Source: an uncultured Actinomycetes bacterium (GTDB lineage: Bacteria > Actinomycetota > Thermoleophilia > UBA2241). From it: DNA of 64,000 bases. The DNA lies in the NCBI GenBank assembly GCA_963767005.1, contig CAVYCN010000018.1, positions 68,341 through 132,340 on the forward strand, read 5' to 3'. A model generated the notes under the pieces. That model was not told where the DNA came from, did not search any database, and worked only from the letters and a program-made list of their open reading frames with translations. This document shows, piece after piece, positions 13,142-35,000 of this stretch (the first letter of the stretch is position 1; each line of letters starts with the position of its first letter). A program made the position numbers and the translations under genes.

Positions 13142-14305
13142 TCAGACGCCGTAGGCGGCGCGCACCAGTGCGAGATAGTCCTCGTAGCCGGCGTCGCGCG
13201 CATTGTCGGGCGAGCATACATGCTCAGCCGACAGCCGCGCGACCTGCTCGGCCTCGGCGTCGGACAGCGGCTGCAGCTCGCGCAGCGCCGGGATGCCGAT
13301 CTCGCGCATGAGGGCCCGCACCCGCTCGACGCCCGCGGCCGCCGCCGCCGCGTCGTCGCGGCCGCCGACCTCGACGCCGAGCGCCGCCGCGACACGCGCG
13401 TGCTTGACGGGATCGGCCGGCGCGTTGAACTCGAGCACGGCCGGCAGGAACACGGCGCAGGCCAGGCCGTGCGGCGTGTCGAACACGCCGCCCAGGCTCT
13501 CGCCCAGGCAGTGCACCGCTCCGACATCGGCGTTGCCGAACGCCATGCCGGCCAGCAGGCTGCCGAGCAGCATGTCGCTGCGCGCCGCGCGGTCGGTGCC
13601 ATCGGCGACGGCCCGCGGCAGGGCGCCGCCGACGAGGCCGATCGCGCGCAGTGCGAGGGCGTCGCTCACCGGGTTGGCGGCCTTGCAGGTGTAGGCCTCG
13701 ACCGCGTGGATCAGCGCGTCCATGCCGGTCGAGGCGGTGAGCGCGAGCGGCAGCGACGCGGTGAGCTCGGGGTCGAGCACGGCGACGCGCGGCGCGATGC
13801 GCGGGTCGAGGAGCGTCATCTTGTAGTGATGCTCCTCGTCGGTGATCACGGCGACCCAGGTGACCTCGCTACCGGTACCAGCTGTGGTCGGCACGGCGAG
13901 CAGCGGGATGGGCGGCTTCTCGGGCACCTTGGGGTCTTCCCAATCCTTCACGCGGCCGCCGTTCGTCACCAGGGTGGCGGCCGCCTTGGCGACGTCGATC
14001 GCGCTGCCCCCGCCGAGGCCGACGATGGCCCCGGCGCCGGCCGCGAGGGCCGCGTCGGCCGCCGCCCGGCACTCGGCGTCGCGCGGGTTCGACGAGATCG
14101 CCGAGAACACGGTGCACTCGCGACCGGCTGCCTTCACGATGCCGGCGACGCGGTCGGCCAGGCCCGCCGCGACGAGGCCGGCGTCGGTGATCAGCAGGAC
14201 GGCACCGTCCGACAGCGCCGCCGCTTCCTGGCCCACCTCGGCGACTCTGCCGGGTCCGAACACGATGCGGGTGGCAAGCTGGAAGCCGAAGGCGACATCG
14301 TCCAT
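13142..14305 (-). CDS. iron-containing alcohol dehydrogenase
   Basis: 'GLGGGSAIDVAKA' and 'GTGSEVT'. AAAGGAG Shine-Dalgarno before ATG 14305. Confidence 0.85.
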   Translation of the reverse strand: MDDVAFGFQLATRIVFGPGRVAEVGQEAAALSDGAVLLITDAGLVAAGLADRVAGIVKAAGRECTVFSAISSNPRDAECRAAADAALAAGAGAIVGLGGGSAIDVAKAAATLVTNGGRVKDWEDPKVPEKPPIPLLAVPTTAGTGSEVTWVAVITDEEHHYKMTLLDPRIAPRVAVLDPELTASLPLALTASTGMDALIHAVEAYTCKAANPVSDALALRAIGLVGGALPRAVADGTDRAARSDMLLGSLLAGMAFGNADVGAVHCLGESLGGVFDTPHGLACAVFLPAVLEFNAPADPVKHARVAAALGVEVGGRDDAAAAAAGVERVRALMREIGIPALRELQPLSDAEAEQVARLSAEHVCSPDNARDAGYEDYLALVRAAYGV

Positions 14306-14528
14306 GACTGCTCCTTTGGGCGGACCCAACGTGGCACGGTAGCCGGATGGTATCGCCCGGGAAACGACGCTTGAACGGCCGGCCAGAAGGCCGTGCGCAC
14401 GGCCGTGGCCGTCTGCACCCGGGGCCTCGCCGCCGGCGGTGCAACCGCACACCGCAAGGCTACGCGCGCGGCGCCGATCGACGGTCCGGCTCCGAACGCC
14501 CCGGGTGGCACGGGGTCGACCGGCGCCG

Positions 14529-16271
14529 TCAGCCTCGAGGCAGCTCGCGGGCGGCCAGCACGTCGGCGGCACGCAGGCCCAGGTAGACCTCGACCAGGCC
14601 ACCGCTCGCCGCCAGGTCGACGCCGAGGAGCTGCTCGATCCGCGCCAGACGCTTGCGCAGGGTGTTGCGGTGCACGAAGAGCACCTCGGCGGTCTCGCCG
14701 ACCTGGCAGCCGTGCGCCAGATAGGCCTCGAGCGTGTCGAGCAGCCCGGTGCCGCGGCGCGCGTCGGTCGAGCGCAGGCGGTCGGCGACCGCCGCCCGCA
14801 GCTGGGTCAGCACCTCGGTCGAGAGCGCGTCGAGAGCCAGGTAGCGCGCCCCGAGCTCCTCGAACAGCGTGACCGTCGGCGCCGGCCGCGAGCGCGCCGT
14901 GGGCGGCGCCTGTCCCGGCCGCGCCCCGCCGGTCGACCGGTCGAGAGCCGCCGAAGCGCCGACGCCGTCGCCCGCGTCGCGGCCGTGGTACAGTGCGAGG
15001 CGCGCCTGGCCGGCGGCGCGCCGCACCTGCTCGACGCCGGTCGCCGCCGCCGACACGCCGACCGGCAGCGAGCCGAGGTCGGTGCGTACGCCCACCGTCT
15101 CGGCGACCTCGCCGAAGAACCGCGCCGCCGCCTCGCCGCCCGCACCGGCGACCGCCGCCGGGCAGAACGCGAACACCTCGGCGCCGAGGCGGTGCGACAG
15201 GAACGGCACGTCGCGCTCCTCGAGCAGGCCGTCGAGGGCCGCGTGCGCCGCGGCCGCCGGTGCGACGCCGACGCCGAGCACCGCCACCCGCCAGGGCTCG
15301 CCGGGCTCGATGCCCTGGTTGACGAGGCGCTCGGCGAGCTCACCCGGGCCGCCGCGCTCGTGCAGCAGCAGCTCGAGCAGGCCCGAGCGGGCGCGCCGCC
15401 GCGAGTCGGCCGTGACGTGGATCGTGCCGAGGCTCACCTCGAGCAGCCGCTGCGCGAACGACAGCGAGGCGTCGGCGAGCTCCGAGATCAGCCGGCCCGC
15501 AGGGTGGACGACGAGCAGCAGCCGCTCGAGGCGGCCACCGACCCGCACCTCGCGAAAGCCGACCCAGCGGTCGTCGAGCTCGAACACCGAGCGCGGCGCG
15601 CCCTGCCGGGTGAGGCGGTCGTACTCGCGCCAGGCACGCGCGACGAGCTCGCGCTCGTCGGCCGCCGGATTCGGCCCCGACGAGCTCGCCAGCACGCGCC
15701 CGGCGCGGTCGAACACGACCGCCTGGGCGCCGAGCAGCTCGCCCAGGCGCCCGACCAGGGCCTCGACGCTGTGCTCGTCGAGCAGCGCGTCGACGAGGCA
15801 CTGCTGCATGGCGACGCTGCGCCGCAGGCGGTGCATGTCGCGCGAGGCGAGGGCGTTGAAGACGTAGCTCGTGATCAGCCGGAAGGGCGTCTCCTCGGGC
15901 ACGCGCAGGATCGGCAGGCCCTCGTCGTCGCCGGCCCGCAGCATGGCGTCCGGGATCACGCGCACGTTGGGCTGGATGGCCACGCCCACGCCCGCCATGC
16001 CGCTGCGCTTGAGCAGGCGCACGAGCCGCACGCCCGACTCGGGGTCGGCTTCGAGACGCGGTCCCGTAGTGAGCACGACGCTGCCCTGTACCATCCAGGG
16101 CGTCGGGTCGTCGAGGTCGCCGATGTACACGGCCTCGACGACCTTGGACAGGCCGGCGCGGCCGGCCACCACCTGCAGGTGCAGGTCGGGGGCCTTGACG
16201 AGCTCGGCGACCGTGAGGCCGCCCGGCGGCAGGCCGCCGTCGTCGACGGGGTTGAGGCGCTGCGGCTGCAC
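14529..16271 (-). CDS. PucR/CdaR-family transcriptional regulator
   Basis: N-terminal PucR-like domain and C-terminal HTH '[20 protein letters not shown]'. Confidence 0.8.
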
Positions 16272-16396
16272 GACGGTCAGCCTATACCGTCGCGCGGAGC
16301 GACGTCTCGCCGGCCGTGGCCGGCGCGGGCTTCTGGGGGGCAGAGAGCCCGCGCCGGCCGGACGCCGCGGCCGGCGTCAGCAGACCCGGCCGCGGC

Positions 16397-17332
16397 TCAC
16401 CGCAAAAAGAGCGCGGCGACGGCCTTCTCGGTGTGCATGCGGTTCTCACCCTGGTCCCAGAAGGCGCAGTAGGGGCTCTCGATGACCTCGTCGACCATGT
16501 CCTCGCCGCGGTAGCCCGGCAGGCAGTGCATGTAGATCACGTCAGGCTTGGCCATCTCGATCACGCGCATGTTGACCTGGTAGGGGGCGAAGTCCTTGAG
16601 GCGCTGCTCGCGGTTCTCGGTGGCCATCGAGTGCCAGGTGTTGCCGTAGATCACGTCGGCCTGGCCGGCGACCTCTTCGAGGTCGGGCGTATAGACGATC
16701 TTCGACCCCGAGAGGGCGGCCCACTTCTGGGCGATCGCGAGCTGCTCGGCGTTGGGCTGATAGCTCTCGTTGGGCTGGGCGGCGTAGAAGTCCATGCCGA
16801 GCATGGCGGAGCCCATCATGAGCGAGTGGCAGACGTTCCAGATGTCGCCCAGGTAGGCGACCTTGAGGCCCTTGTAGTGGCCCTTCTTCTCTTTGATCGT
16901 CATCAGGTCGCAGAGGCCTTGGCAGGGGTGGGTCTCGTTGGTCAGCGCGTTGATCACCGGGTTGAGCATGTAGCGGGCGAACTCCTCGACGACCTCCTGG
17001 CCGAAGGTGCGGATGAAGAGGCCCTCGCAGTAGCGGTCGATGATGCGCGCCGTGTCTGAGATCGGCTCGCCGCGGCTGGTCTGCATCTGGTCGGGGCTCA
17101 TGTAGAAGGTCTGGCCGCCGAGCTGGGCGATGCCCGCCTGAAAGCTCAGGCGGGTGCGCGTCGATGCCTTCTCGAAGATCAGGGCGACGGTCTTGCCGCG
17201 CAGCGGCTCGAAGAGCTCGCCGATCAGGCGCTTGCGCTTGAGCTCGATCGCCGTGTCGACGATGAAGCGCACCTCGTCGGGGGTGAAGTCGGCGAGCTTC
17301 AGGAAGTCTCTGCCCTGGAAGTGGTGCTGCAT
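16397..17332 (-). CDS. ornithine-carbamoyltransferase-family enzyme with an atypical second-substrate motif
   Basis: 'STRTR', 'HPCQ' and 'HCLP' are present. The ornithine-binding 'DxxxSMG' is replaced by 'NTWHSMA'. Confidence 0.85.
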   Translation of the reverse strand: MQHHFQGRDFLKLADFTPDEVRFIVDTAIELKRKRLIGELFEPLRGKTVALIFEKASTRTRLSFQAGIAQLGGQTFYMSPDQMQTSRGEPISDTARIIDRYCEGLFIRTFGQEVVEEFARYMLNPVINALTNETHPCQGLCDLMTIKEKKGHYKGLKVAYLGDIWNVCHSLMMGSAMLGMDFYAAQPNESYQPNAEQLAIAQKWAALSGSKIVYTPDLEEVAGQADVIYGNTWHSMATENREQRLKDFAPYQVNMRVIEMAKPDVIYMHCLPGYRGEDMVDEVIESPYCAFWDQGENRMHTEKAVAALFLR

Positions 17333-17347
17333 GGTAGGGGGCTCCTC

Positions 17348-17992
17348 TCAGTCCGTCCAGCCGTAGGCTCTGATCGGCGAGCCGTCGCCGCCGGCCAGGC
17401 GCAGCGGCACGAAGGCGCAGTGTGCGGCCCGGCCGGCGGCCAGGCCCGCCAGCTCGGTCAGATTGGTCAGGTTCTCGACGATCAGCACGTCGGCGCCCAG
17501 CAGGATCTCGTGGGCATGGGTCGTGTCCTGCAGCGAGCTGTCGACGTTGAAGGCGTCGGTGCCGACCAGGCCTACGCCGGCGGCCACGACGGCCCGGCAG
17601 GCCCCGGCGCCGAGCCAGGGGTGCTCGAACATGCCGGCGCCGCCCCAGTGACGATCCCAGCCGGTGGCCAGTAGCAGGGCGCCGCCGGCCGGCAGCCGCG
17701 CGAGCGCGGCGGCGAGCGCAGGCTCGCCGATCTCGTCGTCGGCGCCCGCCGTCACGCTCGCCACCACGGCCGGCAGCACGAAGCGCTCGAGCGGGTACTC
17801 GTCGATCGCGGAGCCGCCGCGCACGTAGTGGCCGGCGGCGTCGATGTGGGTGCCGCTGTGGCTGCCGAGCGCCAGGCGCGAGACACGCCAGGGCTCGCCG
17901 ACGGCGGCGTCGACGAGCTCGACGACCGGATCGCCGGGGTAGATCGGCATCCCGGTCGCGAGCTCGTGACTCAGATCGACGAAGTGCGTCAC
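17348..17992 (-). CDS. cyclase-family protein (kynurenine formamidase / isatin hydrolase-like)
   Basis: 'HSGTHIDAAGHY' (HxGTHxDxPxH). GTG start overlapping the permease stop (GTGA). Confidence 0.8.
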   Translation of the reverse strand: MTHFVDLSHELATGMPIYPGDPVVELVDAAVGEPWRVSRLALGSHSGTHIDAAGHYVRGGSAIDEYPLERFVLPAVVASVTAGADDEIGEPALAAALARLPAGGALLLATGWDRHWGGAGMFEHPWLGAGACRAVVAAGVGLVGTDAFNVDSSLQDTTHAHEILLGADVLIVENLTNLTELAGLAAGRAAHCAFVPLRLAGGDGSPIRAYGWTD

Positions 17993-19464
17993 GCGTTTGC
18001 TCCGGCGCGGTGCAGCTCCCTGTCGCTGGCCTCGATCGCGGCGTACTCGCTCGCCGGGTCGAAGTTGCGGGTCAGCAGGAAGTAGGCGGCGGCGGTGACG
18101 ACCACGCCGACCATCCAGGCGATGTCGACGCTGTTCAGGTAGTGACCGGCGATCGGCCCCGTGAAGTAGCTCTTCAGACTGACCAGGTTGAGCAGCACCA
18201 TGAAGGGGACCTCGGCCGCGAAGCCGATCGCATAGGCCAGCATGCCGCGCGGCGACCAGACACCGTAGATGCCGTGCGGCTTGAAGATGTCGACGATCGA
18301 GTAATGGCCGCGACGCACGAAGAAGAAGTCGATCAGGTTGGTCGTGGTCCACGGCACGAGCAGGTAGAGCATGAGGGTCAGGGCGGTGTCGACGACGCCC
18401 ACGGCGCTCGTCGAGATCGCCTTCGCGATCACGAACCAGATCACCGTCAGCACGAGGATCGTGACGATCCGCGCGCGCTTGGTGGGTGTCACCTTGCGGA
18501 ACGAGTCGACGCCGGCCAGCGTGGTGAGCATGCCGCCGTAGGCGTTCATGCCCATCGTCGCGGCGAGCGCGCTGGCCGACACGAACGCGGTGAGGCCGCC
18601 GAGGTGGCCGATCACATGGTTGCCGGCACTCTGCAGGCCGACGAGGCCGTCGGTCGCGCCCAGACGGACGGCGAGCCAGGCGCCCAGGGCGATCAGCCAG
18701 ACCGATGGGATCGCCGCGCCGCTGAACACCCAGGCGATGGTCGAGCCCTTGGCGGTGCGGCGCGGCAGGTAGCGCGAGTAGTCGGACACATAGCCGGCGT
18801 AGGTCAGGTTGTAGGCGGCCGCCGCCGAGAGCTGCGCCATAAAGCCGGTCCAGTTGAAGCCGTAGGCCGTGTGGCTGGCGACGTGGCCGGCGTGACCGGT
18901 GAGGATGCCGATCGAGATGATGCCGACGAGCGGCAGCGAGATGTAGAGCAGCCAGCGGAACATGCGGTGCAGCCAGTCGTAGCCGTAGATGGCCAGCAGC
19001 GCGGCGCCGGCCGTCGCAACGACGGCGATGACGTTCGCGTTCCAGCCGAAGGTGCCGTGCAGACCCTGAGCGAGCAGCACCTGGTCGGCCACGTTGAAGG
19101 CCATGTACGTGAAGAGCATGGCAAAGAGCGGCACGACCACGCCGCGAAAGCCGAACTGGGCGCGCGACTGGATCATCTGCGGCAGCCCGAGCACCGGCCC
19201 CTGGGTCGCGTGGAAGGCCATGAAGACCGTGCCGGCGACGATGCCGAGCAGGCCGGCCAGGATGGTCCAGTACAGCGACAGGCCGAAGGCCGGACCGATG
19301 AAGCCGATGGGGATCGTGAAGTACTGGAAGTTCCCCAGGAACCACAGCGGCCCCTGATGCCACACCTTGCCGTGTCGCTCGGAGTCGGGGATCCAGTCGA
19401 TGGAGCGCACCTCGATCCCGCTGATGCCGCTCGGGGTGCGCGTCGGTGACTCAACCGTGGCCAT
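17989..19464 (-). CDS. NCS1-family nucleobase/hydantoin:cation symporter
   Basis: 12-TMS profile typical of cytosine/purine/allantoin permeases. GAGGAGAG Shine-Dalgarno before ATG 19464. Confidence 0.85.
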   Translation of the reverse strand: MATVESPTRTPSGISGIEVRSIDWIPDSERHGKVWHQGPLWFLGNFQYFTIPIGFIGPAFGLSLYWTILAGLLGIVAGTVFMAFHATQGPVLGLPQMIQSRAQFGFRGVVVPLFAMLFTYMAFNVADQVLLAQGLHGTFGWNANVIAVVATAGAALLAIYGYDWLHRMFRWLLYISLPLVGIISIGILTGHAGHVASHTAYGFNWTGFMAQLSAAAAYNLTYAGYVSDYSRYLPRRTAKGSTIAWVFSGAAIPSVWLIALGAWLAVRLGATDGLVGLQSAGNHVIGHLGGLTAFVSASALAATMGMNAYGGMLTTLAGVDSFRKVTPTKRARIVTILVLTVIWFVIAKAISTSAVGVVDTALTLMLYLLVPWTTTNLIDFFFVRRGHYSIVDIFKPHGIYGVWSPRGMLAYAIGFAAEVPFMVLLNLVSLKSYFTGPIAGHYLNSVDIAWMVGVVVTAAAYFLLTRNFDPASEYAAIEASDRELHRAGANA

Positions 19465-19587
19465 GGCAAGCTCTCCTCTCGCCTGACGTCGTTGGGGCTG
19501 GCCGGTGGGCTGCTGCTGATCGTGCACGATCCACGGCGACCGCCACAGGCGTCGCCGGACAGAGGGACAAAAGCAGGCGCGGACGGC

Positions 19588-20487
19588 TCACGACCGTCCC
19601 GCCTGACGGGGCGCGCCGGCGCGGGCGGCGGCCGGCATGCCGGCCGCCGCCCGCGCCGGCGCGCTCACCGCGGCGTAGAGCTCGGGGCGCCGGTCGCGCA
19701 GCTGCGAGCCGTAGCCCGCGCGCGCCTGCCGGGTGTGTTCCAGGTCGACGGCGCCGGCGAGCAGAGCGTCCTCGCCGTCGTCGAGCGCGGCGACCTGGTG
19801 CCCGAAGCAATCGACGATGCGCGAGTGGCCCGAGAACGACGCCGGCCCGTCGGGTCCGGTGCGGTTGACCGCGACGTGCGGCACGACGTTGTCGTAGGCG
19901 CGGGCCGCGACCGCGAGCTCCCAGTCGGCGACGTAGGGGTCCTCCCAGGCGCCGATCGTGACGAGCAGCTCGGCGCCGGCCAGCGCGTGCGTGCGGGCGA
20001 CCTCGGGAAAGGCCGCGTCCCAGCAGATCATGAGACCGAGCTCGCCGAGCGATGTGGCGACGATCGGCAGCTCGTCGCCGTCGGCGAAGTGGCGGAGCTC
20101 GGTCTTGAGGCAGTGCGTCTTGCGGTACGAGACCACGGGGCGGCCGTTGCGCTCGAAGACGGCGGCCGCGTCGTAGATCAGGCCGGGCGCGCCGCCCGCC
20201 TCGGCGTAGCCCGCGATCAGCACCACGTCGAGCTCGGCGGCGAGGGCGGCAAGGGCCCGCAGGCTGGCGCCGTCGGGCCAGGGTTCGGCCAGCGCGGCGA
20301 ACCGCTCGCCGGCCGAGTAGCCGGTGACGGCGAGCTCGGGCGCGACCAGCAGCGCGAGCTCGGGTTGCGCCGCCTTGAGCTCGCGCCCGAGCGCGGCCAT
20401 ACGGGCCACGTTGGCCGCAGGGTCGCCGGTCGTAGGCCGCAGCTGGATGCCGCCGGCGACGATCACGGACGCACGCGGGCGGGCCAT
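19588..20487 (-). CDS. carbon-nitrogen hydrolase (nitrilase superfamily; N-carbamoyl amidase-like)
   Basis: 'YRKTHC' (Lys) and 'ICWD' (Cys) catalytic motifs. Confidence 0.8.
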   Translation of the reverse strand: MARPRASVIVAGGIQLRPTTGDPAANVARMAALGRELKAAQPELALLVAPELAVTGYSAGERFAALAEPWPDGASLRALAALAAELDVVLIAGYAEAGGAPGLIYDAAAVFERNGRPVVSYRKTHCLKTELRHFADGDELPIVATSLGELGLMICWDAAFPEVARTHALAGAELLVTIGAWEDPYVADWELAVAARAYDNVVPHVAVNRTGPDGPASFSGHSRIVDCFGHQVAALDDGEDALLAGAVDLEHTRQARAGYGSQLRDRRPELYAAVSAPARAAAGMPAAARAGAPRQAGRS

Positions 20488-20497
20488 CGGGCTCCTC

Positions 20498-21355
20498 TCA
20501 GACGTCCCGCAGGAGCGGGAACGTCATGCAGTGCGGTCCGCCGCCGCCCTTCAAGATCTCGCTGATCTCGGGGGCGATGACCTCGAGGCCGAGGGCGCGC
20601 AGCTTCGCGTTGACGTCGCGATTGCCGGCGAAGGTCAGCACGCGGCCGTCGCCGAGCGCCTGGATGTTGCAGTGGTGGGCGAGCACGCCGGCGCTGCTCA
20701 CCTCGATCAGCTCGAAGCGGCGCTTGGCCAGGGCGCGCAGGAAGAACTCGGGCATCTGCTCGACGGCGCACACAGCGACGCCCGGCGCCACGATGTTGAA
20801 GGCCATGTCGAGGTGCAGGTTGCGCGAGGGAAGCTGCACGCCGCGCACGGTGTAGCCGAGCGGCTCGAGGATCTCCTGGGCGTTGCGCAGCCCCTCCCAG
20901 TCGGTGCGCGCCACCACGCCGTGGGCCACCGTGGCCTCGTCTATGAGCCAGAAATCGCCGCCCTCCAAGGAGCCGCGGCAGACCTTGCCGATGATGGGCA
21001 CGCCGAGCTCTCGCAGCCTGGCCTCGTAGAGCAGCTCCTCGCCCTGGCGCACCGGCTCGCGGAAGCTGCCGATCAGCGCACCCTCGGCCAGACAGGCGCC
21101 GAAGTCGCGCGCGTAGACCATGTAGGGCAGCTCGGGATCGGGCTCAATGAGCTCGACCGCGACGCCGGCCTCGCGGTAGGCCGCCACGAGCTCTGAGTGC
21201 TCGCGGGAAAAGGCCGCAAGGTCGGGCTGCTCGCCGCGGGCCAGCACGCCGCGGGTGATCTCGTTGATGGGCTGGAAGCTGAAGTGGTCGGGGGGGCACA
21301 GCAGGACCTTGCGGAGCCTGCCCGTCGCGTTCGACACAAACAGCTGCTCGGTCAT
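20498..21355 (-). CDS. amidinotransferase-superfamily hydrolase (DDAH-like)
   Basis: About 285 aa, with a C-terminal 'GGGGPHCMT' catalytic Cys. GGAGAGGAG Shine-Dalgarno before ATG 21355. Confidence 0.75.
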   Translation of the reverse strand: MTEQLFVSNATGRLRKVLLCPPDHFSFQPINEITRGVLARGEQPDLAAFSREHSELVAAYREAGVAVELIEPDPELPYMVYARDFGACLAEGALIGSFREPVRQGEELLYEARLRELGVPIIGKVCRGSLEGGDFWLIDEATVAHGVVARTDWEGLRNAQEILEPLGYTVRGVQLPSRNLHLDMAFNIVAPGVAVCAVEQMPEFFLRALAKRRFELIEVSSAGVLAHHCNIQALGDGRVLTFAGNRDVNAKLRALGLEVIAPEISEILKGGGGPHCMTFPLLRDV

Positions 21356-21502
21356 CTGGGGCAACTCCTCTCCACCTGACGCTGTCGCGAGCGGAACGTA
21401 TCCGGCGCGGACGAGAGCGACAAGTGGACCTCTGCACCCGAAATGATGGATGGAAGGTGCCCTTGTACACCTGGTTTGATGCCGACGGCTGGCGGTGGTC
21501 GA

Positions 21503-22153
21503 ATGGGACCCGTGCAACGTCCCGTCATCATGTTCGACAACGACGGCGTGCTGGTCGATTCGTTCGACGCCTTCCTCGCGGCGTTCGGCGCGGCCTGCCG
21601 CCGCCACGGCCACCCCGAGGTCGGCACCCGCGAGCGGTTCCTGGGCCTGTTCGAGGGCAACTTCTACGACGCCATGGCGGCGCGCGGCGTAGCCGGCGAC
21701 GCGCTGCGCGCGATCGTCGCCGACACGACGGCCGCGCTCGACGCCTCACCGGAGCTGCAGCATCCCTTCCCCGGCGTGCCGGAGCTGCTGGGCGGCCTCG
21801 CCGCCCGCTTCGACGTTGTGGTGATCACCTCGAACGCGGCCGCCGTGGTGCGCGACTTCCTGGAGCGCGAGGGGCTCGCCGGCCTCGTGACCGACGTGCT
21901 CGGCGTCGAGACCGATCCGAGCAAGGTGCGCAAGATCGCCACGGTCACCGCGCGCTACCCCGGCCAGGCGCCGTACTACTACGTGGGCGACACGAGCGGC
22001 GACATGATCGAAGGCGCCGCGGCCGGAGTGACCCCGCTCGGCGCCGGCTGGGGCTGGCACGGGCCGGCGGCGCTCGCGACGGCCGGCGCAGCCTACGTCG
22101 CGTCCACGCCGGCCGACCTGCTCGCGTTCGTGACGGACGGCGCCGGCTCGTAG
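21503..22153 (+). CDS. HAD-IA hydrolase (phosphoglycolate phosphatase-like)
   Basis: 'MFDNDGVLVDS' and 'GDTSGD'. Confidence 0.7.
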   Translation: MGPVQRPVIMFDNDGVLVDSFDAFLAAFGAACRRHGHPEVGTRERFLGLFEGNFYDAMAARGVAGDALRAIVADTTAALDASPELQHPFPGVPELLGGLAARFDVVVITSNAAAVVRDFLEREGLAGLVTDVLGVETDPSKVRKIATVTARYPGQAPYYYVGDTSGDMIEGAAAGVTPLGAGWGWHGPAALATAGAAYVASTPADLLAFVTDGAGS

Positions 22154-22888: not shown

Positions 22889-23098
22889 GGTCGAAAGCGT
22901 ACCCTGCCGGGCCCTACGCACGAAACATAAGTTGTGACGGGCGTTTGCCGATACACCACCCTGCCGGGAGAGAGACGCTCGGCGTCCGCGCGCCGTGGCC
23001 CGAGAGGGCTCCTCCGGCGACGGCGGGCGCCCGGTGCTCTCCGGGGTTGGCGGAGAAAAGGGTCACGTTTGACGAACCGGAGCACGAGCGCGGGCTGG

Positions 23099-26863
<3,765 letters not shown>

Positions 26864-27970: not shown

Positions 27971-29374
27971 CTAGCGAATGACCGGACGGCGACCGGCGAG
28001 CCCCGCCCGGAATCGCTCGACGGCCGGCAGGTGCAGGTCGAGCAGGTCGGCGATGTGCGCCTTGGCCTCGAGCGGGCTCGGGTCGTCGTAGTAGCTCGCC
28101 TCGGTCTCGAAGATGCGTCCGAGGCGCAGCTCACCGCGCAGCTCGTGCATGGCGGCGTTGTCGGACAGGTCGCGCGGCGCGACCCCGAGCCGGTCGGCCA
28201 CGTAGCGTTTGGCCTGCGTGATCCTCATGCCCTTCGCCATCTGCATCCGCGCCACCAGATCTCCGGCGGCGCGCAGTCCGTTCATGCCGGAGGCGCACGA
28301 GTGGGCGACGTCCATACCGAACGAGTCGCCCGTGCCCACCTACAAGCCGTCCAGGCGGAGCACGTCGACGCAGGCGCGCGACACCCGCGAGACGGCGTCG
28401 ACCGGCGCGAAGGCGGTCATCGGCACGCCGCCCACGCCCATGCCGACGTTCATGTGCACGGGTATCTCGGCGGCGGCCATGCAGGGCTTCACGAAGGTGA
28501 GGGCGCGAGCCACGTTCCAGGGCGTCGACCTGCTCGTGTTGGTGTTCACCGCCGGTCCGAACACCGTCGCGCCGGCCTGCTGCACCACCGCGAGCTGACC
28601 CGCTGGCTTGAGCCCCGCCAGGCGCGTGCCGCGATACTCGAGCCGGCCGTGGGTGCCGAGCACGATCTCGGCCGCCATGCCGACCATGATGCCCAGGTCG
28701 GGGTGCCGCTCCCGCAAGATCTCGACGGTGCGCAGGGTGGCCAGCAGGTCGGCGTCGCCGGCGGCGCCGGCGGTGTCGAAGTTCACACCGTCGGCGCCGG
28801 CGTCCCACATGGCCTCGGCCACGTAGACCATGTCGGCCACGGCAAGCTCGACCGCCTCTTCCTGGGCGGCGCGCGCCTCGTCGATGCGCACCTCGGGCAG
28901 GAGCTGCGCCCAGTTGCCGCAGGGTCCGTCGGGTTCCGAGTACCGGCCCAGGTCGGGCTGGGCGCCGTAGTGCACCGGCACCGTCAGCCGCTCCTGGGCC
29001 TCCTTCATGTACTGCTGCTCGAAGGGGACAACGGGCTTGACCGCCTTGTAGGAGTAGTCGATGTGGAACAGCTCGACGCTGTCGTGGGCGAGCACCTGCT
29101 CGTAGGCGTACAGGGCGTCGACCCTGCTGCCGAGCTGCGGCGTGCCGGTGCCATCCTTTGAGAGCACGACCTCGTCGCCCACATCGACCGCCGTGAAGCG
29201 CGCCTGCGACGCGAAGATGTCGAGCAGATGGTCGAGCTCACTGTCGTCGAGCGACGCCAGCTTGCCGCGGGTGGCGGCGGCCTGCGTGCCCGCGTCGAGC
29301 TCGACGCGGATGGCGCTCCGGGTCGCCTCGACGAGCGACCCGTCGCCCATCCGCATCGGGACCTGCCGTTCCAT
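27971..29374 (-). CDS. mtbB: dimethylamine:corrinoid methyltransferase-like protein (MtbB-like), copy 1, with an in-frame TAG at 28340-28342
   Basis: ORFs 28340-29383 and 27971-28339 are in the same frame, separated only by TAG. It has the 'RMGDG', 'HIDYSYK', '[11 protein letters not shown]', 'MGVGGVP' and '...LRLDGL-TAG-VGTGD...GDLVARMQ' blocks. GGAGGTG Shine-Dalgarno before ATG 29374. Confidence 0.75.
28340..28342 (-). other. in-frame amber codon (candidate pyrrolysine) in mtbB-like copy 1
   Basis: Plus strand reads 'cta'. The reading frame continues on both sides. Confidence 0.7.
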
Positions 29375-29462
29375 CAACGTCACCTCCGCGGCGCCGTCGC
29401 CCCCCTGGCGTCGGTCCCGGGGATGCTATCGCAGTCGCAGGCAAAGCGGCAACGCGCCTTCA

Positions 29463-29550: not shown

Positions 29551-30936
29551 TTACAACCCGACGCGCTGCTTGAAGCGCTCGACGCTGTTGATCGTGATGT
29601 CGAGCGCCTTGGCGATGTTGAACTTGGCCTCGATCATGCCGGCGTCGCCGGGACGCACCGCGGAGGTGTGAGGCAGGCACCCCAGCCCCTTCTCGATGCG
29701 GATCTGCTCCATGGCGATCGGGTCGGACAGGTCGCGTACGCCGCAGCCGAGCTTGTCGGCGACGTAGGCCTTGGCTTCACTCAGGCGCATCCTTCGGGTC
29801 ATCTGCATGCGTGCCACGAGATCTCCCGCGGTCCGCATTCCGCCCATGCCCGAAGCCTGCGAATGGGCAGACTCCATGCCCATGGCATCGCCCGTGCCCA
29901 CCTAGTAGCCGTCGATCTTGAGGATCTCGACGAAGGCCTTGGAGGCACGCGACGTGGCATCGGCCGGCGGATAGACGCAGGTCGGCACGCCGCCCACACC
30001 CATGCCCACGTTGACGTGCACCGGGATCTCGGCGATCTCGGCGGCCGGCTTGATGAAGGTCATCGCCCGGGCGATGTTCCAGGCGGTCGACTTGCCTGTG
30101 TTGATGTTGACGGCGGGGCCGTAGATCGAGGCGCCCGCGGCCTGCACCATGCGCACCTGGTCCTTGGGCCACATGCCGGCCAGACGCTCGCCGTCGAACT
30201 CGAGCTGGCCGTGCATGCCGAGCACGAACTCGCTCGCCATGCCGATCTCGATGCCGAGCCACGGGTATCTGTCGCGTAGCATGCGGCAAGCGGTGAGGCC
30301 GGCGAGAAAGTCGGCGTCGCCGGCCGCGCCGGTCGTGTCCATGTCGATGCCGTCGGCGCCGGCTTCGATCATGTGGTCGGCGACGAAGTTGATGTCGTTG
30401 ACCAGCATGTCGCAGGCCTCGAGCTGCGCGGCGCGGGCCTCGTCGACCTTCATGAGCGGCAGCAGCTCGGACCAGTTGTCGATCGGCCCGTCGGGCTTCG
30501 AGTAGCGGCCGAGGTCGGGCATCGCCCCGTACTGCACCGGGTTCGTGCAGAGCATCTGGGCGATCTTCATCGACTGGCCCTCGTGGGCCACGTTGGTCTT
30601 GACCGCCTTGTACGAGTAGTCGATCTGCCAGAGCTCGATCATGTCGATGCCGACGACCTGCTCGTAGGTCTGCAGGTCCTGCACCCGGTTACCGATGTGC
30701 TTGGTGCCGGTGCCGTCGTTGCTCATGACGACCTCGTCGCCGATGTCGACGGCGGTGAAGCGGGCCGACGAGGCATAGATGTCGAGCAGGTGGTCGAGCT
30801 CGTCCTGATTGAGCGGGTCGACCTTGGCCCGTTTGGCGGCCTGTTGCGTGCCGTCCTCGAGGTCGGCCTTGATCTCGGAGCGCGTCATATCGACGAGCGC
30901 GCCGTCTCCCATGCGCGTTGCGATCTTGGGTTCCAA
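29551..30936 (-). CDS. mtbB: MtbB-like dimethylamine methyltransferase, copy 2, with an in-frame TAG at 29902-29904
   Basis: Same architecture as copy 1: '...ILKIDGY-TAG-VGTGDAMGMES...GDLVARMQ'. TTG start 6 nt after a GGAGGTG Shine-Dalgarno gives 'MEPKIATRMGDG'. TAA stop. Confidence 0.75.
29902..29904 (-). other. in-frame amber codon (candidate pyrrolysine) in mtbB-like copy 2
   Basis: Plus strand 'cta'. ORFs 29902-30951 and 29551-29901 share a frame. Confidence 0.7.
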
Positions 30937-31232
30937 GCGCATCACCTCCACGTGCGCACGTTCGCGGGGACCGGCCGCCGGTAGCGACCGGGACCGGATC
31001 GGACTCGGATGTGCCCCGGGTCTGGGTCACGAAGGGCCACACCGGGAGCCGTCGGCCCATGGTATATCGGCCCTCCCACCGTCCGCCACCCGGGGCACCC
31101 AGGGGCCCGAGCGCGGCACGCCGAGACCGGGACGCTCGCTCTCACCCCGAGTCGCGCCGCATCACCCCCCCTCGCGGCGGTACGACCAGGGGCGCGGCAT
31201 CACCCCACGGCGCGCCGGCGTCTCGCGCATGC

Positions 31233-33593: not shown

Positions 33594-35000
33594 TCAGCGT
33601 CCGACGGGGTGCTTGCGGCCGGCCATCTCGCGGAAGCGCTCCACGCAGTTGACCGGCACGTCGAGCACGGCCGCGATGTTGAACTTGGCCTCGATCCCCA
33701 TGGGGTCGCCGACGTCGGTGATCTCGCCCGACTCGAGGATGCCGCCGAGGCCGTGCTCCTTGCGCACGTCGAGCATGACCGTCGGGTCGGAGAGGTCGAT
33801 CGTCGAGACGCCCAGCCGGTCGGCCACGTACCGCTTGGCCTCGACGAGCCGCATCCCTCGGGTGATCTGCATCCGGGCCACCAGATCTCCAGCAGTCCGG
33901 ATCCCGCCCATCCCCGAGGCGACGCCGTGGCTCACAGCCTGGCCGTACACGTCGCCCGCGCCCACCTACAAGCCATCCAGGCGCAGGATGTCGACCGCGG
34001 CGCGCGAGGCCCGGCAGGTGGCGTCGCCGGCCGGGGTGACGTGCATCGGCACGCCGCCCACCCCCATGCCGCCGTTCAGGTGCACCGGCACGGTCGCCTC
34101 GTCGCAGCACGGCTTGGCGATGGTCAGCGTGCGCGCCACGTTCCAGGCGATCGACCTGCCGGTGTTCACGTTGATCGCCGGGCCGAAGATGGTGACGCCG
34201 GCCTTGGCGGCCACCTTCATCTGCTCGCGCGGCCACAGGCCGGCGAGGCGCACGCCGTCGTACTCGAGCTCGCCGTGCATGCCGAGCACGAACTCGCCGG
34301 CCATGCCGATCTGGATGCCCACCGTCGGGTGCGCGGCGCGGATGCGCTCGACCGCCTTGAGCGTGGCGAGGAAGTCGGCGTCGCCGGCCGCGCCGGCCGT
34401 GTCGAGGTCGATGAACTCGGCGCCGGCTTCGATCAGCTCGTCGGCCACGAAGCAGATGTCGTCGACCGCGAGCTCGACCGCCTGTTCCTGGGCCGCGCGA
34501 GCTTCGTCGATGCGACCGAGCGGCAGAAGCTGCGACCAGTTCGGCACCGGACCGTCGGGCACGGTGTAGAGGCCGAGGTCGGGCATGGCGCCGTAGCCGA
34601 GCGGCGCCGTGGTCACGAACTGCGCCTGGCGCATCATGACCTGCTCGAAGGCCGTGACCCCCTTCGCCGGCTTGTAGGAGTAGTCGTGGTGGTAGAGCTC
34701 GAGCGAGTCGGCGCAGAGGTACTGCTCGTAGTACTGCAGGTCGTTGATGCGCGTGCCGAGGTCCTGGCTGCCGCAGCCGTCGAAGGACAGCACGACCTCG
34801 TCGCCGATGTCGACGCCGGTGAACCGGCTGTTCGAGCAGAAGATGTCGGCGAGGTGGGCGAGCTCGTCGGCGCCCAGCTCGGGACTCTTGCTGCGCTTGG
34901 CGCCGGCCTGCGTGCCGGCCTCGAGGTCGGCGCGGATCTGCGACGGCGTCATCTCGACGAGCGCGCCGTCGCCCATGCGCGTGCGGATCGTGGGTTCCAT
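33594..35000 (-). CDS. mtbB: MtbB-like dimethylamine methyltransferase, copy 3, with an in-frame TAG at 33966-33968
   Basis: '[12 protein letters not shown]' after a GAGGTGA Shine-Dalgarno. '...[21 protein letters not shown]...GDLVARMQ'. TGA stop. Confidence 0.75.
33966..33968 (-). other. in-frame amber codon (candidate pyrrolysine) in mtbB-like copy 3
   Basis: Plus strand 'cta'. ORFs 33966-35000 and 33594-33965 share a frame. Confidence 0.7.

Follow-up and report, generated by a model that had tools for sequence, protein, structure and literature searches.

A gene cluster pairing a DDAH-like hydrolase with an OTC-family transcarbamylase in an uncultured actinobacterium: a candidate deiminase–transcarbamylase pathway for a guanidino compound other than arginine or agmatine

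The hydrolase–transcarbamylase pairing and its distribution

The closest described counterparts of the system discussed here are the arginine deiminase (ADI) pathway (ArcA, ArcB, ArcC and ArcD), in which a Cys hydrolase, a phosphorolytic enzyme of the ornithine transcarbamylase (OTC) family, a carbamate kinase and a transporter are combined, and the agmatine deiminase pathway (AguA, putrescine transcarbamylase (PTC) or AguB, AguC and AguD), which serves as a precedent for a second deiminase/transcarbamylase/kinase route and whose PTC had long been mis-annotated as OTC (PMC3282769). The same logic and the same superfamilies are seen in a cluster of six genes at positions 14,529 to 21,355 of a 64,000-nucleotide stretch of DNA from an uncultured Actinomycetes bacterium of the Thermoleophilia (assembly GCA_963767005.1, contig CAVYCN010000018.1, positions 68,341 to 132,340; hereafter, “the window”), where a DDAH-like hydrolase and an OTC-family (“OTC-like”) transcarbamylase are encoded together with a C-N hydrolase, an NCS1 permease, a cyclase and a PucR regulator. 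In our judgment, it is rather probable, albeit far from assured, that this cluster represents a catabolic deiminase–transcarbamylase pathway, laid out like those for arginine and agmatine, for a different guanidino compound.

Relatives of the cluster often unite all four parts of an ADI-type system (e.g., L001, L028–L032, L059 and L063 of the loci introduced below), while the window encodes three of the four (deiminase, transcarbamylase and transporter), with no carbamate kinase gene within its 64 kb. The differences from the ADI pathway, however, are several: the hydrolase is much shorter (285 aa vs. ~410 aa) and lacks the ADI helical insertion, the transcarbamylase lacks the Asp that binds the alpha-amino group of ornithine, the regulator is PucR-type, and the transporters, depending on the locus, are NCS1, APC, YfcC, ABC or SSF ones. 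The agmatine pathway makes use of either the phosphorolytic PTC or the hydrolytic AguB, both enzyme types being present in the operon studied here, but the PTC signatures are absent from the OTC-like protein, the predicted substrate keeps a carboxylate, and AguA belongs to the PAD_porph family and not to the DDAH-like one. As for DDAH and ArgZ, they have the fold, size, catalytic Cys/His, guanidino-binding Asp and two carboxylate-binding Arg in common with the DDAH-like protein, yet the identity is ~22%, the alpha-amino-binding Asp is a Tyr here, and an Asp stands here where ArgZ has an Asn; to our knowledge, no transcarbamylase linkage is known for either of them. On the transcarbamylase side, PTCase, as well as DPTCase and DBTCase (from zwittermicin, viomycin and padanamide biosynthesis), are members of the OTC branch that, like the OTC-like enzyme, have intact carbamoyl-phosphate motifs and a changed 240s/SMG loop, the conserved loop Asp being replaced by Thr or Ser in DPTCase and DBTCase (PMC4581275). 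The latter two, however, have an Asp at the second position of HCLP, whereas the OTC-like enzyme keeps HCLP and shows an NTWHSM[A/G] loop, and they reside in antibiotic clusters, whereas the OTC-like context is catabolic, with a deiminase and a carbamate kinase.

An alignment-based scan with one genome per species returned 464 relatives of the DDAH-like protein, of which the best 80 loci (numbered with the prefix L) were analyzed, the loci being retrieved with the DDAH-like protein alone and the neighbors counted within 10 kb. The closest relative among these is from an uncultured Actinomycetes metagenome-assembled genome (94% identity). An OTC-family gene accompanies the DDAH-like gene in 44 of the 80 loci, spread over many phyla, against a chance expectation of about 1% (a rough estimate presuming 1–2 OTC-family genes per genome), which puts the linkage far beyond chance. 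This neighborhood comparison, called for in the first-pass annotation of the window, lends support to the analogy with the ADI and agmatine deiminase pathways drawn there, as the pairing is conserved over phyla and is often found with a carbamate kinase (26/80 loci) and a PucR regulator (about 50 of 83 loci, all architectures). Other neighbors include a D-2-hydroxyacid dehydrogenase (19 loci), the cyclase (18), a class-III aminotransferase (11), the C-N hydrolase (10–11), an M20 carbamoylase-type amidase (9), an iron-type alcohol dehydrogenase (Fe-ADH; 8) and the NCS1 permease (7–8). The linked carbamate kinase passes TIGR00746 (433 vs. a cut-off of 358), and the DDAH-like family itself is compact (52 representatives at 50% identity for E <= 1e-30) while being taxonomically widespread.

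The gene orders seen fall into architectures designated A to E. Architecture A, that of Actinomycetota/Thermoleophilia, reads DDAH, [C-N hydrolase, NCS1], [cyclase, APC permease, metallophosphoesterase-like], OTC-like, [second cyclase], PucR; the window is its reduced form, its closest relatives, L005, L006 and L018, having three extra genes (for an APC permease, a metallophosphoesterase-like protein of 332 aa and another cyclase paralogue, with 38% identity), as exemplified by the fuller cluster at 14114–18536 of L005. A phosphoesterase has no evident place in a guanidino pathway. Architecture B (OTC-like, APC, DDAH, carbamate kinase, SSF; PucR in some) is carried by Serratia, Pseudomonas lundensis, Atlantibacter, Enterococcus and Slackia, its transcarbamylase being of the NTWHSM type, as in the window. 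Architecture C (PucR, OTC-like, YfcC-type carrier, DDAH, 2-hydroxyacid dehydrogenase, carbamate kinase) is found in Clostridia, Klebsiella indica, K. spallanzanii, Vagococcus and on a conjugative plasmid of E. mundtii. On that plasmid (pLDW-8 of Enterococcus mundtii, NZ_CP018062.1, 62942–68880; L085), the type C genes are annotated as PucR, “argF”, YfcC and “arginine deiminase family”, and their residence on a conjugative element means that the system is mobile. Architecture D, from gut Bacteroidaceae/Lachnospiraceae, consists of two DDAH paralogues, a Pot-like ABC importer, an M20 carbamoylase and PucR, and architecture E of DDAH, an M20-like protein and an aminotransferase.

Two further loci were encountered. 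In L086 (8001–16542), a variant transcarbamylase (GYPWNV/GMSWKVMAG) is encoded next to an Amidohydro_3 enzyme, a carbamate kinase and an ABC transporter of the UrtA-like type, while a DDAH-like gene is absent; a cyclic amidohydrolase may be the source of the ureido substrate there. In L087 (8001–10331), a type-I OTC-like gene and a GABA-type aminotransferase gene share a contig with archaeal-type genes (TrmB, Alba, archaeal pantoate kinase and phosphopantothenate synthetase), so the transcarbamylase subfamily may extend to archaea. E. coli genomes searched for the enterobacterial version of the cluster gave no DNA match. The annotations by PGAP and JGI are generic (“ornithine carbamoyltransferase/argF”, “DDAH/arginine deiminase family protein”), and no published description of a DDAH-like/transcarbamylase/PucR pathway, a guanidino-acid deiminase or ureidobutyrate was found in full-text searches of the literature.

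Active sites of the two enzymes and the predicted pathway

None of the specific NCBIfam models for the relevant hydrolases reaches its cut-off on the DDAH-like protein, be it the DDAH models (85.8 vs. 300, 67.1 vs. 340 and 55.9 vs. 450), the ADI models (65–71 vs. 414–489; TIGR01078 64.7 vs. 489) or the ArgZ/AgrE model NF052232 (54.8 vs. 450), and the alignment to ADI chains is good only over its C-terminal ~55 residues. Its AF2 model (pLDDT 89) found NnhA, the ArgZ N-domain, PaDDAH, AGAT and ADI as the best folds in Foldseek (probability 1.00 at ~15–24% identity), with a TM of ~0.85 over the ArgZ N-domain and PaDDAH, and a pentein-type fold, the catalytic Cys/His and both Asp motifs make the protein a member of the guanidino-group-modifying superfamily. 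Invariant throughout the family are D84, R103, R150, H181, D183 and C276, of which, as judged by sequence alignment, C276 and H181 correspond to the catalytic Cys and His of PaDDAH, D84 (in YARD) to the guanidino-binding Asp (PaDDAH D66/human D79), and R103 and R150 to PaDDAH R85 and R132 (human R98 and R145), while D183 lies in the HLD motif (LHLD). Since both Asp of the FTRD/HLD motifs are kept, in contrast to the ureido-acting CtlX, which has Asn at both positions (PMC9007349), and to ArgZ, which has FTAN in place of YARD (Asn vs. Asp), the enzyme should act on the guanidino group and stop at the ureido product. In human DDAH1, R145 contacts the alpha-carboxylate of the substrate and D73 is a ligand of its alpha-amino group (PMC10958460). 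R103 and R150 being conserved as in the arginine-binding enzymes, the substrate would be expected to keep its carboxylate; at the position of D73 (PaDDAH D60; ArgZ also has an Asp there), the DDAH-like protein has Tyr78.

The OTC-like protein passes the NCBIfam OTC equivalog TIGR00658 (354.8 vs. a cut-off of 280.85), hence the OTC/argF names its relatives bear in the databases, and its best full-length match in the PDB is the P. furiosus OTC (E 4.7e-85), but the TIGR00658 score is a measure of overall similarity, not of specificity. The carbamoyl-phosphate motifs, defined for OTCs as SxRT, HPxQ and HxLP (PMC4581275), are retained as FEKASTRTR, HPCQ and HCLP (HCLPGYRGED). It is the ornithine site that differs: GDGNN has become GDIWN (the second Asn, Asn167, kept, and the first one replaced by Trp) and DVWASMG has become NTWHSMA. 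Ornithine is contacted directly by D231, S235 and M236, all in the DxxxSMG loop, the motif that sets OTCs apart (PMC4581275); the OTC-like protein has an Asn at the D231 position (E. coli numbering), none of the 46 transcarbamylases linked to DDAH-like genes has an Asp there, and the loop Asp is also absent in the listed homologues with a readable loop. Most of the 120 homologues listed, with identities as low as ~58%, share the variant motif, its bearers spanning Thermoleophilia, Anaerolineae, Bacillota and Enterococcus. The Lys two residues before STRT ion-pairs the alpha-carboxylate of ornithine, and both this Lys and xSM are lost in PTC (PMC3282769); the OTC-like protein keeps both (FEKASTRT), which again speaks for a carboxylate in the substrate. 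Nor are any PTC signatures present, as the residue is Lys and not Gln, the loop reads HSMA and not (Y/W)(G/W)(V/L/I)x, the C-terminal helix of ~20 residues is absent (the 311-aa protein ends where OTCs end), and the PTC model TIGR04384 gives 256.9 against a cut-off of 500. The OTC-like enzyme thus appears not to be an ordinary OTC, but one retuned away from ornithine.

As D231 is replaced by Asn in one enzyme and D60/D73 by Tyr78 in the other, the alpha-amino group would not be recognized by either, and the substrate most likely carries a carboxylate and no alpha-amino group. The earlier suggestion of a non-standard guanidino substrate is hereby strengthened, whereas the methylarginines and citrulline analogues then put forward as candidates are disfavored by the altered residues, a better fit being a guanidino carboxylic acid that lacks an alpha-amino group.

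Residue 78 of the DDAH-like protein co-varies with the partner enzyme. Tyr78 goes with an NTWHSM-type transcarbamylase or an M20 carbamoylase, Leu/Val78 with other transcarbamylase loops (GMTQYAMG, GMSHYSMG and TNVWAAM), and Asn78 with no transcarbamylase but with an aminotransferase passing the ornithine aminotransferase cut-off (696.8 vs. 656). The Asn78 sister clade (L060, L066, L070–L072 and L081), whose partner is a 550–640-aa M20-like protein and which has a bona fide ornithine aminotransferase in L060 and L066, looks like a true arginine branch, offering an internal control for position 78, and may follow a route from arginine through citrulline to ornithine that relies on a citrullinase of a new type. 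Genes for aminotransferases that score above the cut-off (506.65) of the GABA transaminase equivalog TIGR00700 adjoin type-I OTC-like or Tyr78 DDAH-like genes (L002, 550; L025, 558; L040, 544; L055, 515; L087, 512), often with an aldehyde:ferredoxin oxidoreductase (AFOR) or an Fe-ADH beside them. In other clades, there is an M20 amidase of the hydantoinase/carbamoylase family (TIGR01879, 312 vs. 204), and such an alternative decarbamoylase argues for the product of the DDAH-like enzyme being a ureido acid.

From the gene content, conservation, motif changes and fold observed, we infer the following chemistry, direction and regulation. A permease (NCS1 here) would import the substrate or its precursor; the DDAH-like enzyme, by Cys–His covalent catalysis, would convert a guanidino acid and water to a ureido acid and ammonia; and the OTC-like enzyme would convert the ureido acid and phosphate to an omega-amino acid and carbamoyl phosphate, from which a carbamate kinase (encoded elsewhere in the genome, if present) would make ATP from ADP, unless the carbamoyl phosphate is spent in biosynthesis. 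The amine would then be transaminated to an aldehyde and further converted to an alcohol or acid, by the Fe-ADH here and by a GABA-type aminotransferase and an aldehyde oxidoreductase in the relatives, while the C-N hydrolase, NCS1 permease and cyclase may supply the pathway with related precursors or offer it a hydrolytic bypass. Our best single candidate for the substrate, albeit one more apt to be wrong than right, is 4-guanidinobutyrate, giving 4-ureidobutyrate and then GABA and carbamoyl phosphate: the GABA-type aminotransferases nearby fit it, and so does the replacement of the ammonium-binding Asp by Asn and His, which would suit a carboxylate one carbon closer. In conifers and animals, this compound is commonly formed from arginine (PMC2647905). 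Alternative candidates are 5-guanidinovalerate, 3-guanidinopropionate and alpha-oxo or alpha-hydroxy analogues. Should the guess be right, substrate and GABA product would be those of the ureohydrolase guanidinobutyrase (GbuA), which, however, splits off urea in a single step and conserves no energy, whereas a ureido intermediate and carbamoyl phosphate are predicted here; the cluster would then be the deiminase counterpart of guanidinobutyrase, by analogy with what ADI is to arginase and agmatine deiminase to agmatinase.

Gene organization, regulation and surroundings of the cluster

The features of the cluster and of the genes 3' of it are listed in Table 1. The first-pass description of six co-directional genes with short gaps and a GTGA overlap of permease and cyclase is confirmed by the open reading frames, the Pfam matches and the third-position GC content (GC3) of 0.93–0.96 in the called frame of each of the six genes. 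From the DDAH-like gene to the PucR one, the intergenic distances are 10, 123, -4, 15 and 125 nt, the GTG start of the cyclase overlapping the NCS1 stop. The GC content across the cluster region is ~0.66–0.78; horizontal acquisition of the OTC-like gene, considered for its lower GC content (64%), was rejected, as its GC3 is 0.96 and the drop reflects the amino-acid composition.

Table 1. Coordinates of the cluster, its putative regulatory regions and the genes 3' of it in the window.
Feature	Position	Strand	Characteristics
Conserved promoter/operator-like region 5' of the DDAH-like gene	21395-21472	minus	six-locus conservation
DDAH-like hydrolase	21355-20498	minus	285 aa; Pfam DDAH_eukar 4.5e-32, ADI 6.9e-24
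C-N hydrolase, nitrilase superfamily	20487-19588	minus	299 aa; Pfam CN_hydrolase 1.3e-47
NCS1 permease	19464-17989	minus	491 aa; Pfam Transp_cyt_pur 3.3e-32
Cyclase, kynurenine-formamidase-like metal hydrolase	17992-17348	minus	214 aa; Pfam Cyclase PF04199 2.2e-29
OTC-family transcarbamylase	17332-16397	minus	311 aa; NCBIfam OTC equivalog passed
Intergenic hairpin region, OTC-like/PucR gap	16272-16396	minus	RNA folding
PucR regulator	16271-14529	minus	580 aa; Pfam PucR + GGDEF_2 + HTH_30
Iron-type alcohol dehydrogenase (Fe-ADH)	14305-13142	minus	387 aa; Pfam Fe-ADH
Amidohydro_3 protein, D-aminoacylase-like	13102-11429	minus	same strand, 3' of cluster
MtnX-like HAD phosphatase	11340-10594	minus	same strand, 3' of cluster

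The 125-nt gap between the OTC-like and PucR genes contains two long GC-rich hairpins, back to back, right after the OTC-like stop, which fold at -93.5 kcal/mol against a shuffle mean of -68.6 (z = -5.84; 0/200 shuffles as stable) and, having no U-tract, were overlooked by a simple terminator scan. They are likely a transcript boundary or an mRNA stabilizer, so that the five genes from the DDAH-like to the OTC-like one probably form a single transcript, with PucR probably transcribed separately from a promoter of its own. Scans of the cluster for sigma-70 promoter and U-tract terminator consensus sequences gave no matches, as is to be expected for 73% GC actinobacterial sequence, and an Rfam search of 14000–22000 for riboswitches (e.g., guanidine-I to IV; E <= 1) gave none either. 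As to the placement of the operon “under” PucR, regulation by it is plausible, but its gene lies downstream (3') of the enzyme genes rather than upstream, behind the two hairpins, and is probably not on their transcript.

What PucR, a family that includes catabolic activators, could act on is suggested by the conserved region 5' of the DDAH-like gene. It contains two GTGY-N7-CACYT sites (21455–21470, palindromic, and 21422–21437), followed downstream by TTGTCG (21418–21423), a 17-nt spacer and TACGTT (21395–21400), with these blocks being invariant in six related loci while the sequence around them diverges. There are 6 matches to the pattern in the window against 1.19 expected, three of them 5' of the DDAH-like gene (two sites, one matching both strands), and all three Pfam domains of the regulator (the N-terminal one, the GGDEF-like middle one and the C-terminal HTH_30) are above cut-off. 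PucR is predicted to act at these two sites, and a copy of the palindromic operator with one mismatch at 14437–14452, upstream of the Fe-ADH gene, weakly hints at co-regulation of the latter. A divergent gene for a HAD-family phosphatase (21443–22153, plus strand) is kept upstream in L005 and L006; since its longest open reading frame overlaps the conserved operator-like block, translation more likely begins at the Met near 21503.

The C-N hydrolase, NCS1 permease and cyclase, which the first-pass annotation had counted among the parts of the system, are real genes of the operon, but they are lineage-specific accessories and not its core. The best NCBIfam match of the C-N hydrolase, N-carbamoylputrescine amidase AguB (TIGR03381), is below cut-off (125.1 vs. 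410), and its PDB matches include N-carbamoylputrescine amidohydrolase and a beta-ureidopropionase-like nitrilase, which establishes no more than general membership among the C-N hydrolases. It may remove a carbamoyl group hydrolytically, like AguB, or act as an amidase on a precursor of amide type; it occurs with NCS1 in 8 of the ~11 loci that have it. The NCS1 permease, for which the NCBIfam search gave no specific subfamily, may take up the substrate or a precursor, its place being taken in other lineages by APC, YfcC/DcuC-type, Pot-like ABC, SSF or Gate transporters. The cyclase scores below cut-off on arylformamidase (kynurenine formamidase; TIGR03035, 70.7 vs. 223), shows a metal motif (HSGTHIDAAGH) in the alignment to 1r61, and is present as two paralogues of ~38% identity in the fuller relatives; together with NCS1, it may bring in cyclic or amide precursors.

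As for the downstream genes that had been proposed to belong to the same regulon, only the first of them holds up. In four actinobacterial loci (L004, L008, L010 and L011), the OTC-like gene has an Fe-ADH orthologue (67–69% identity) as its immediate neighbor, which makes the Fe-ADH a probable member of the system that would reduce an aldehyde derived from the amine product; its typing (4-hydroxybutyrate dehydrogenase, sulfoacetaldehyde reductase, etc.) found no NCBIfam model at cut-off, and the Fe-ADHs are heterogeneous between loci. The D-aminoacylase-like and MtnX-like genes were rejected as parts of the system, being found in 0 of the 80 related loci, and the amidohydrolases of L002 and L086 are not orthologous to the Amidohydro_3 protein of the window.

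On the other side of the cluster, there are three genes for the dimethylamine methyltransferase MtbB (Pfam Dimeth_Pyl; 27971–29383, 29551–30951 and 33594–35000, minus strand). All three are interrupted by a TAG codon that lies in frame and coincides with the pyrrolysine position (context GGC-TTG/TAC-TAG-GTG-GGC), and all three contain an Rfam PYLIS_2 element (73, 55 and 51 bits). The implication is that an actinobacterial genome of high GC content decodes pyrrolysine; the window itself showed neither pyl genes nor tRNA-Pyl, its only tRNA being that for Thr. Between the operon and mtbB, a 1309-aa signaling protein (GAF, HD-GYP-type HD_5 and GGDEF; 22934–26863, plus strand) is encoded, with synteny in L005.

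Weighing of the alternatives and meaning of the pathway

Several observations sit uneasily with a linear guanidino-acid pathway. The main weakness lies in the three accessory genes: the cyclase and NCS1 permease are not explained by a simple linear guanidino acid and could point to a cyclic or amide precursor, and a ureido-amidase-like C-N hydrolase in the same operon would make phosphorolysis redundant, unless its role has been misjudged. The window has no carbamate kinase. The residue mapping of the DDAH-like protein comes from a sequence alignment at ~22% identity and not from a ligand complex, and the co-variation spans few clades, its events not being statistically independent. GABA-type aminotransferases also serve putrescine catabolism, and the one in L025 lies beside a PatA-like enzyme and a second DDAH/transcarbamylase pair, which renders the association ambiguous. 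The Fe-ADH and transporter subfamilies are uninformative on the substrate, as typing of the latter (APC, SSF, YfcC, NCS1 and Pot-like substrate-binding proteins) gave superfamily-level matches only.

The most serious alternative, which we nevertheless hold to be unlikely, is that the substrate is a short, N-substituted or cyclic guanidino compound (creatine/creatinine, guanidinoacetate/glycocyamidine or 3-guanidinopropionate), with the cyclase opening a lactam and NCS1 importing the cyclic form. The NCS1 family is named for cytosine, purines, uracil, thiamine and allantoin (Pfam Transp_cyt_pur), the relatives of the cyclase include isatin (lactam) hydrolases, and the cyclase is the commonest actinobacterial partner of the DDAH-like gene (the 18 loci above); these three genes of the accessory set (cyclase, C-N hydrolase and NCS1) were, however, not detected in type B clusters. 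The bulky Trp/Tyr/Phe in place of Asn in GDGNN could fill the space left by a smaller substrate, whereas the Arg pair of the hydrolase, placed as in arginine-binding enzymes, suggests a chain length near that of arginine. L086 ties a variant transcarbamylase and a carbamate kinase to a cyclic-amidohydrolase-type enzyme, and the carriers of the system include Pseudomonas lundensis, Serratia quinivorans and Vagococcus, which live in association with meat and animals, sources rich in creatine; yet, were glycine or sarcosine the product, the partners encoded in several loci (GABA-type aminotransferase, aldehyde oxidoreductase or Fe-ADH) would not be needed.

An ordinary arginine or methylarginine route, in which a short ADI/DDAH would yield citrulline, perhaps along with methylamines, for conversion to ornithine and carbamoyl phosphate by a catabolic OTC, is what the labels would have one believe, with the OTC-like protein above the NCBIfam OTC cut-off, OTC/argF written everywhere and the hydrolase matching DDAH and ADI models. 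It is nonetheless improbable, given that the Asp binding the alpha-amino group of ornithine is missing in 46 of the 46 linked transcarbamylases, its counterpart in DDAH/ArgZ is a Tyr here, the NCBIfam DDAH, ADI and ArgZ models all fall far short of their cut-offs, and it is the Asn78 sister clade with its ornithine aminotransferase that looks like the true arginine branch. The methylarginine version could draw on the three pyrrolysine-type dimethylamine methyltransferase genes 7–13 kb away, which could use dimethylamine released by a true DDAH, but their synteny is limited to the near-identical relative L005 and is seen in none of the other 79 loci, and the mtbB link was rejected as a general explanation.

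Very improbable is an agmatine-type pathway (with agmatine deiminated by the DDAH-like enzyme, N-carbamoylputrescine hydrolyzed by the C-N hydrolase and the OTC-like enzyme being a PTC variant), for although AguB is the best NCBIfam match of the C-N hydrolase, a plant N-carbamoylputrescine amidohydrolase is among its top PDB matches, some of the Tyr78 DDAH-like genes (L033 and L044) have a PatA-like putrescine aminotransferase as neighbor and Pot-like ABC transporters occur in several clades, every PTC signature fails in the OTC-like protein, the DDAH-like family has kept its two carboxylate-binding Arg without exception, and the score on the AguB model is, as noted, far below its cut-off. Hardly credible, finally, is that the genes are neighbors without a shared pathway or that the transcarbamylase is anabolic, making a ureido metabolite or natural product (the missing carbamate kinase, the hydrolytic C-N hydrolase and the thermodynamically uphill phosphorolysis of ureido compounds (PMC9007349) notwithstanding), as the linkage holds over phyla and architectures, the clusters repeatedly include a catabolic carbamate kinase, uptake transporters and PucR-type regulators, the active-site residues of both enzymes co-vary, and there are no NRPS, PKS or tailoring genes nearby.

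What we favor, then, is a catabolic deiminase–transcarbamylase pathway for a guanidino acid, the logic of which is familiar, while its substrate class and enzyme specificities would be new. Going further, it is conceivable, if still somewhat doubtful, that the DDAH-like/OTC-like pairs as a whole make up an unrecognized, widespread family of substrate-level-phosphorylation pathways, comprising at least three or four co-evolved specificity classes and bearing the wrong OTC labels, which could be called “guanidino-acid deiminase pathways” and whose carriers are soil Actinomycetota/Thermoleophilia, gut Clostridia/Bacteroidaceae, enterobacteria, enterococci, a conjugative plasmid and, possibly, archaea. 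Position 78 of the DDAH-like protein and the 240s loop of the transcarbamylase provide a testable specificity code for it.

If true, this would be the third deiminase/transcarbamylase/carbamate-kinase fermentation, after those of arginine and agmatine, and would bring with it two new enzyme activities (e.g., a 4-guanidinobutyrate deiminase and a GABA carbamoyltransferase), as well as the correction of a systematic mis-annotation, the DDAH-like gene being found in 464 stretches of species-representative genomes, whereby the history of PTC would be repeated. It would also constitute an energy-yielding alternative to the urea-releasing guanidinobutyrase route, by means of which soil and gut bacteria could harvest both nitrogen and ATP from arginine-derived guanidino acids.

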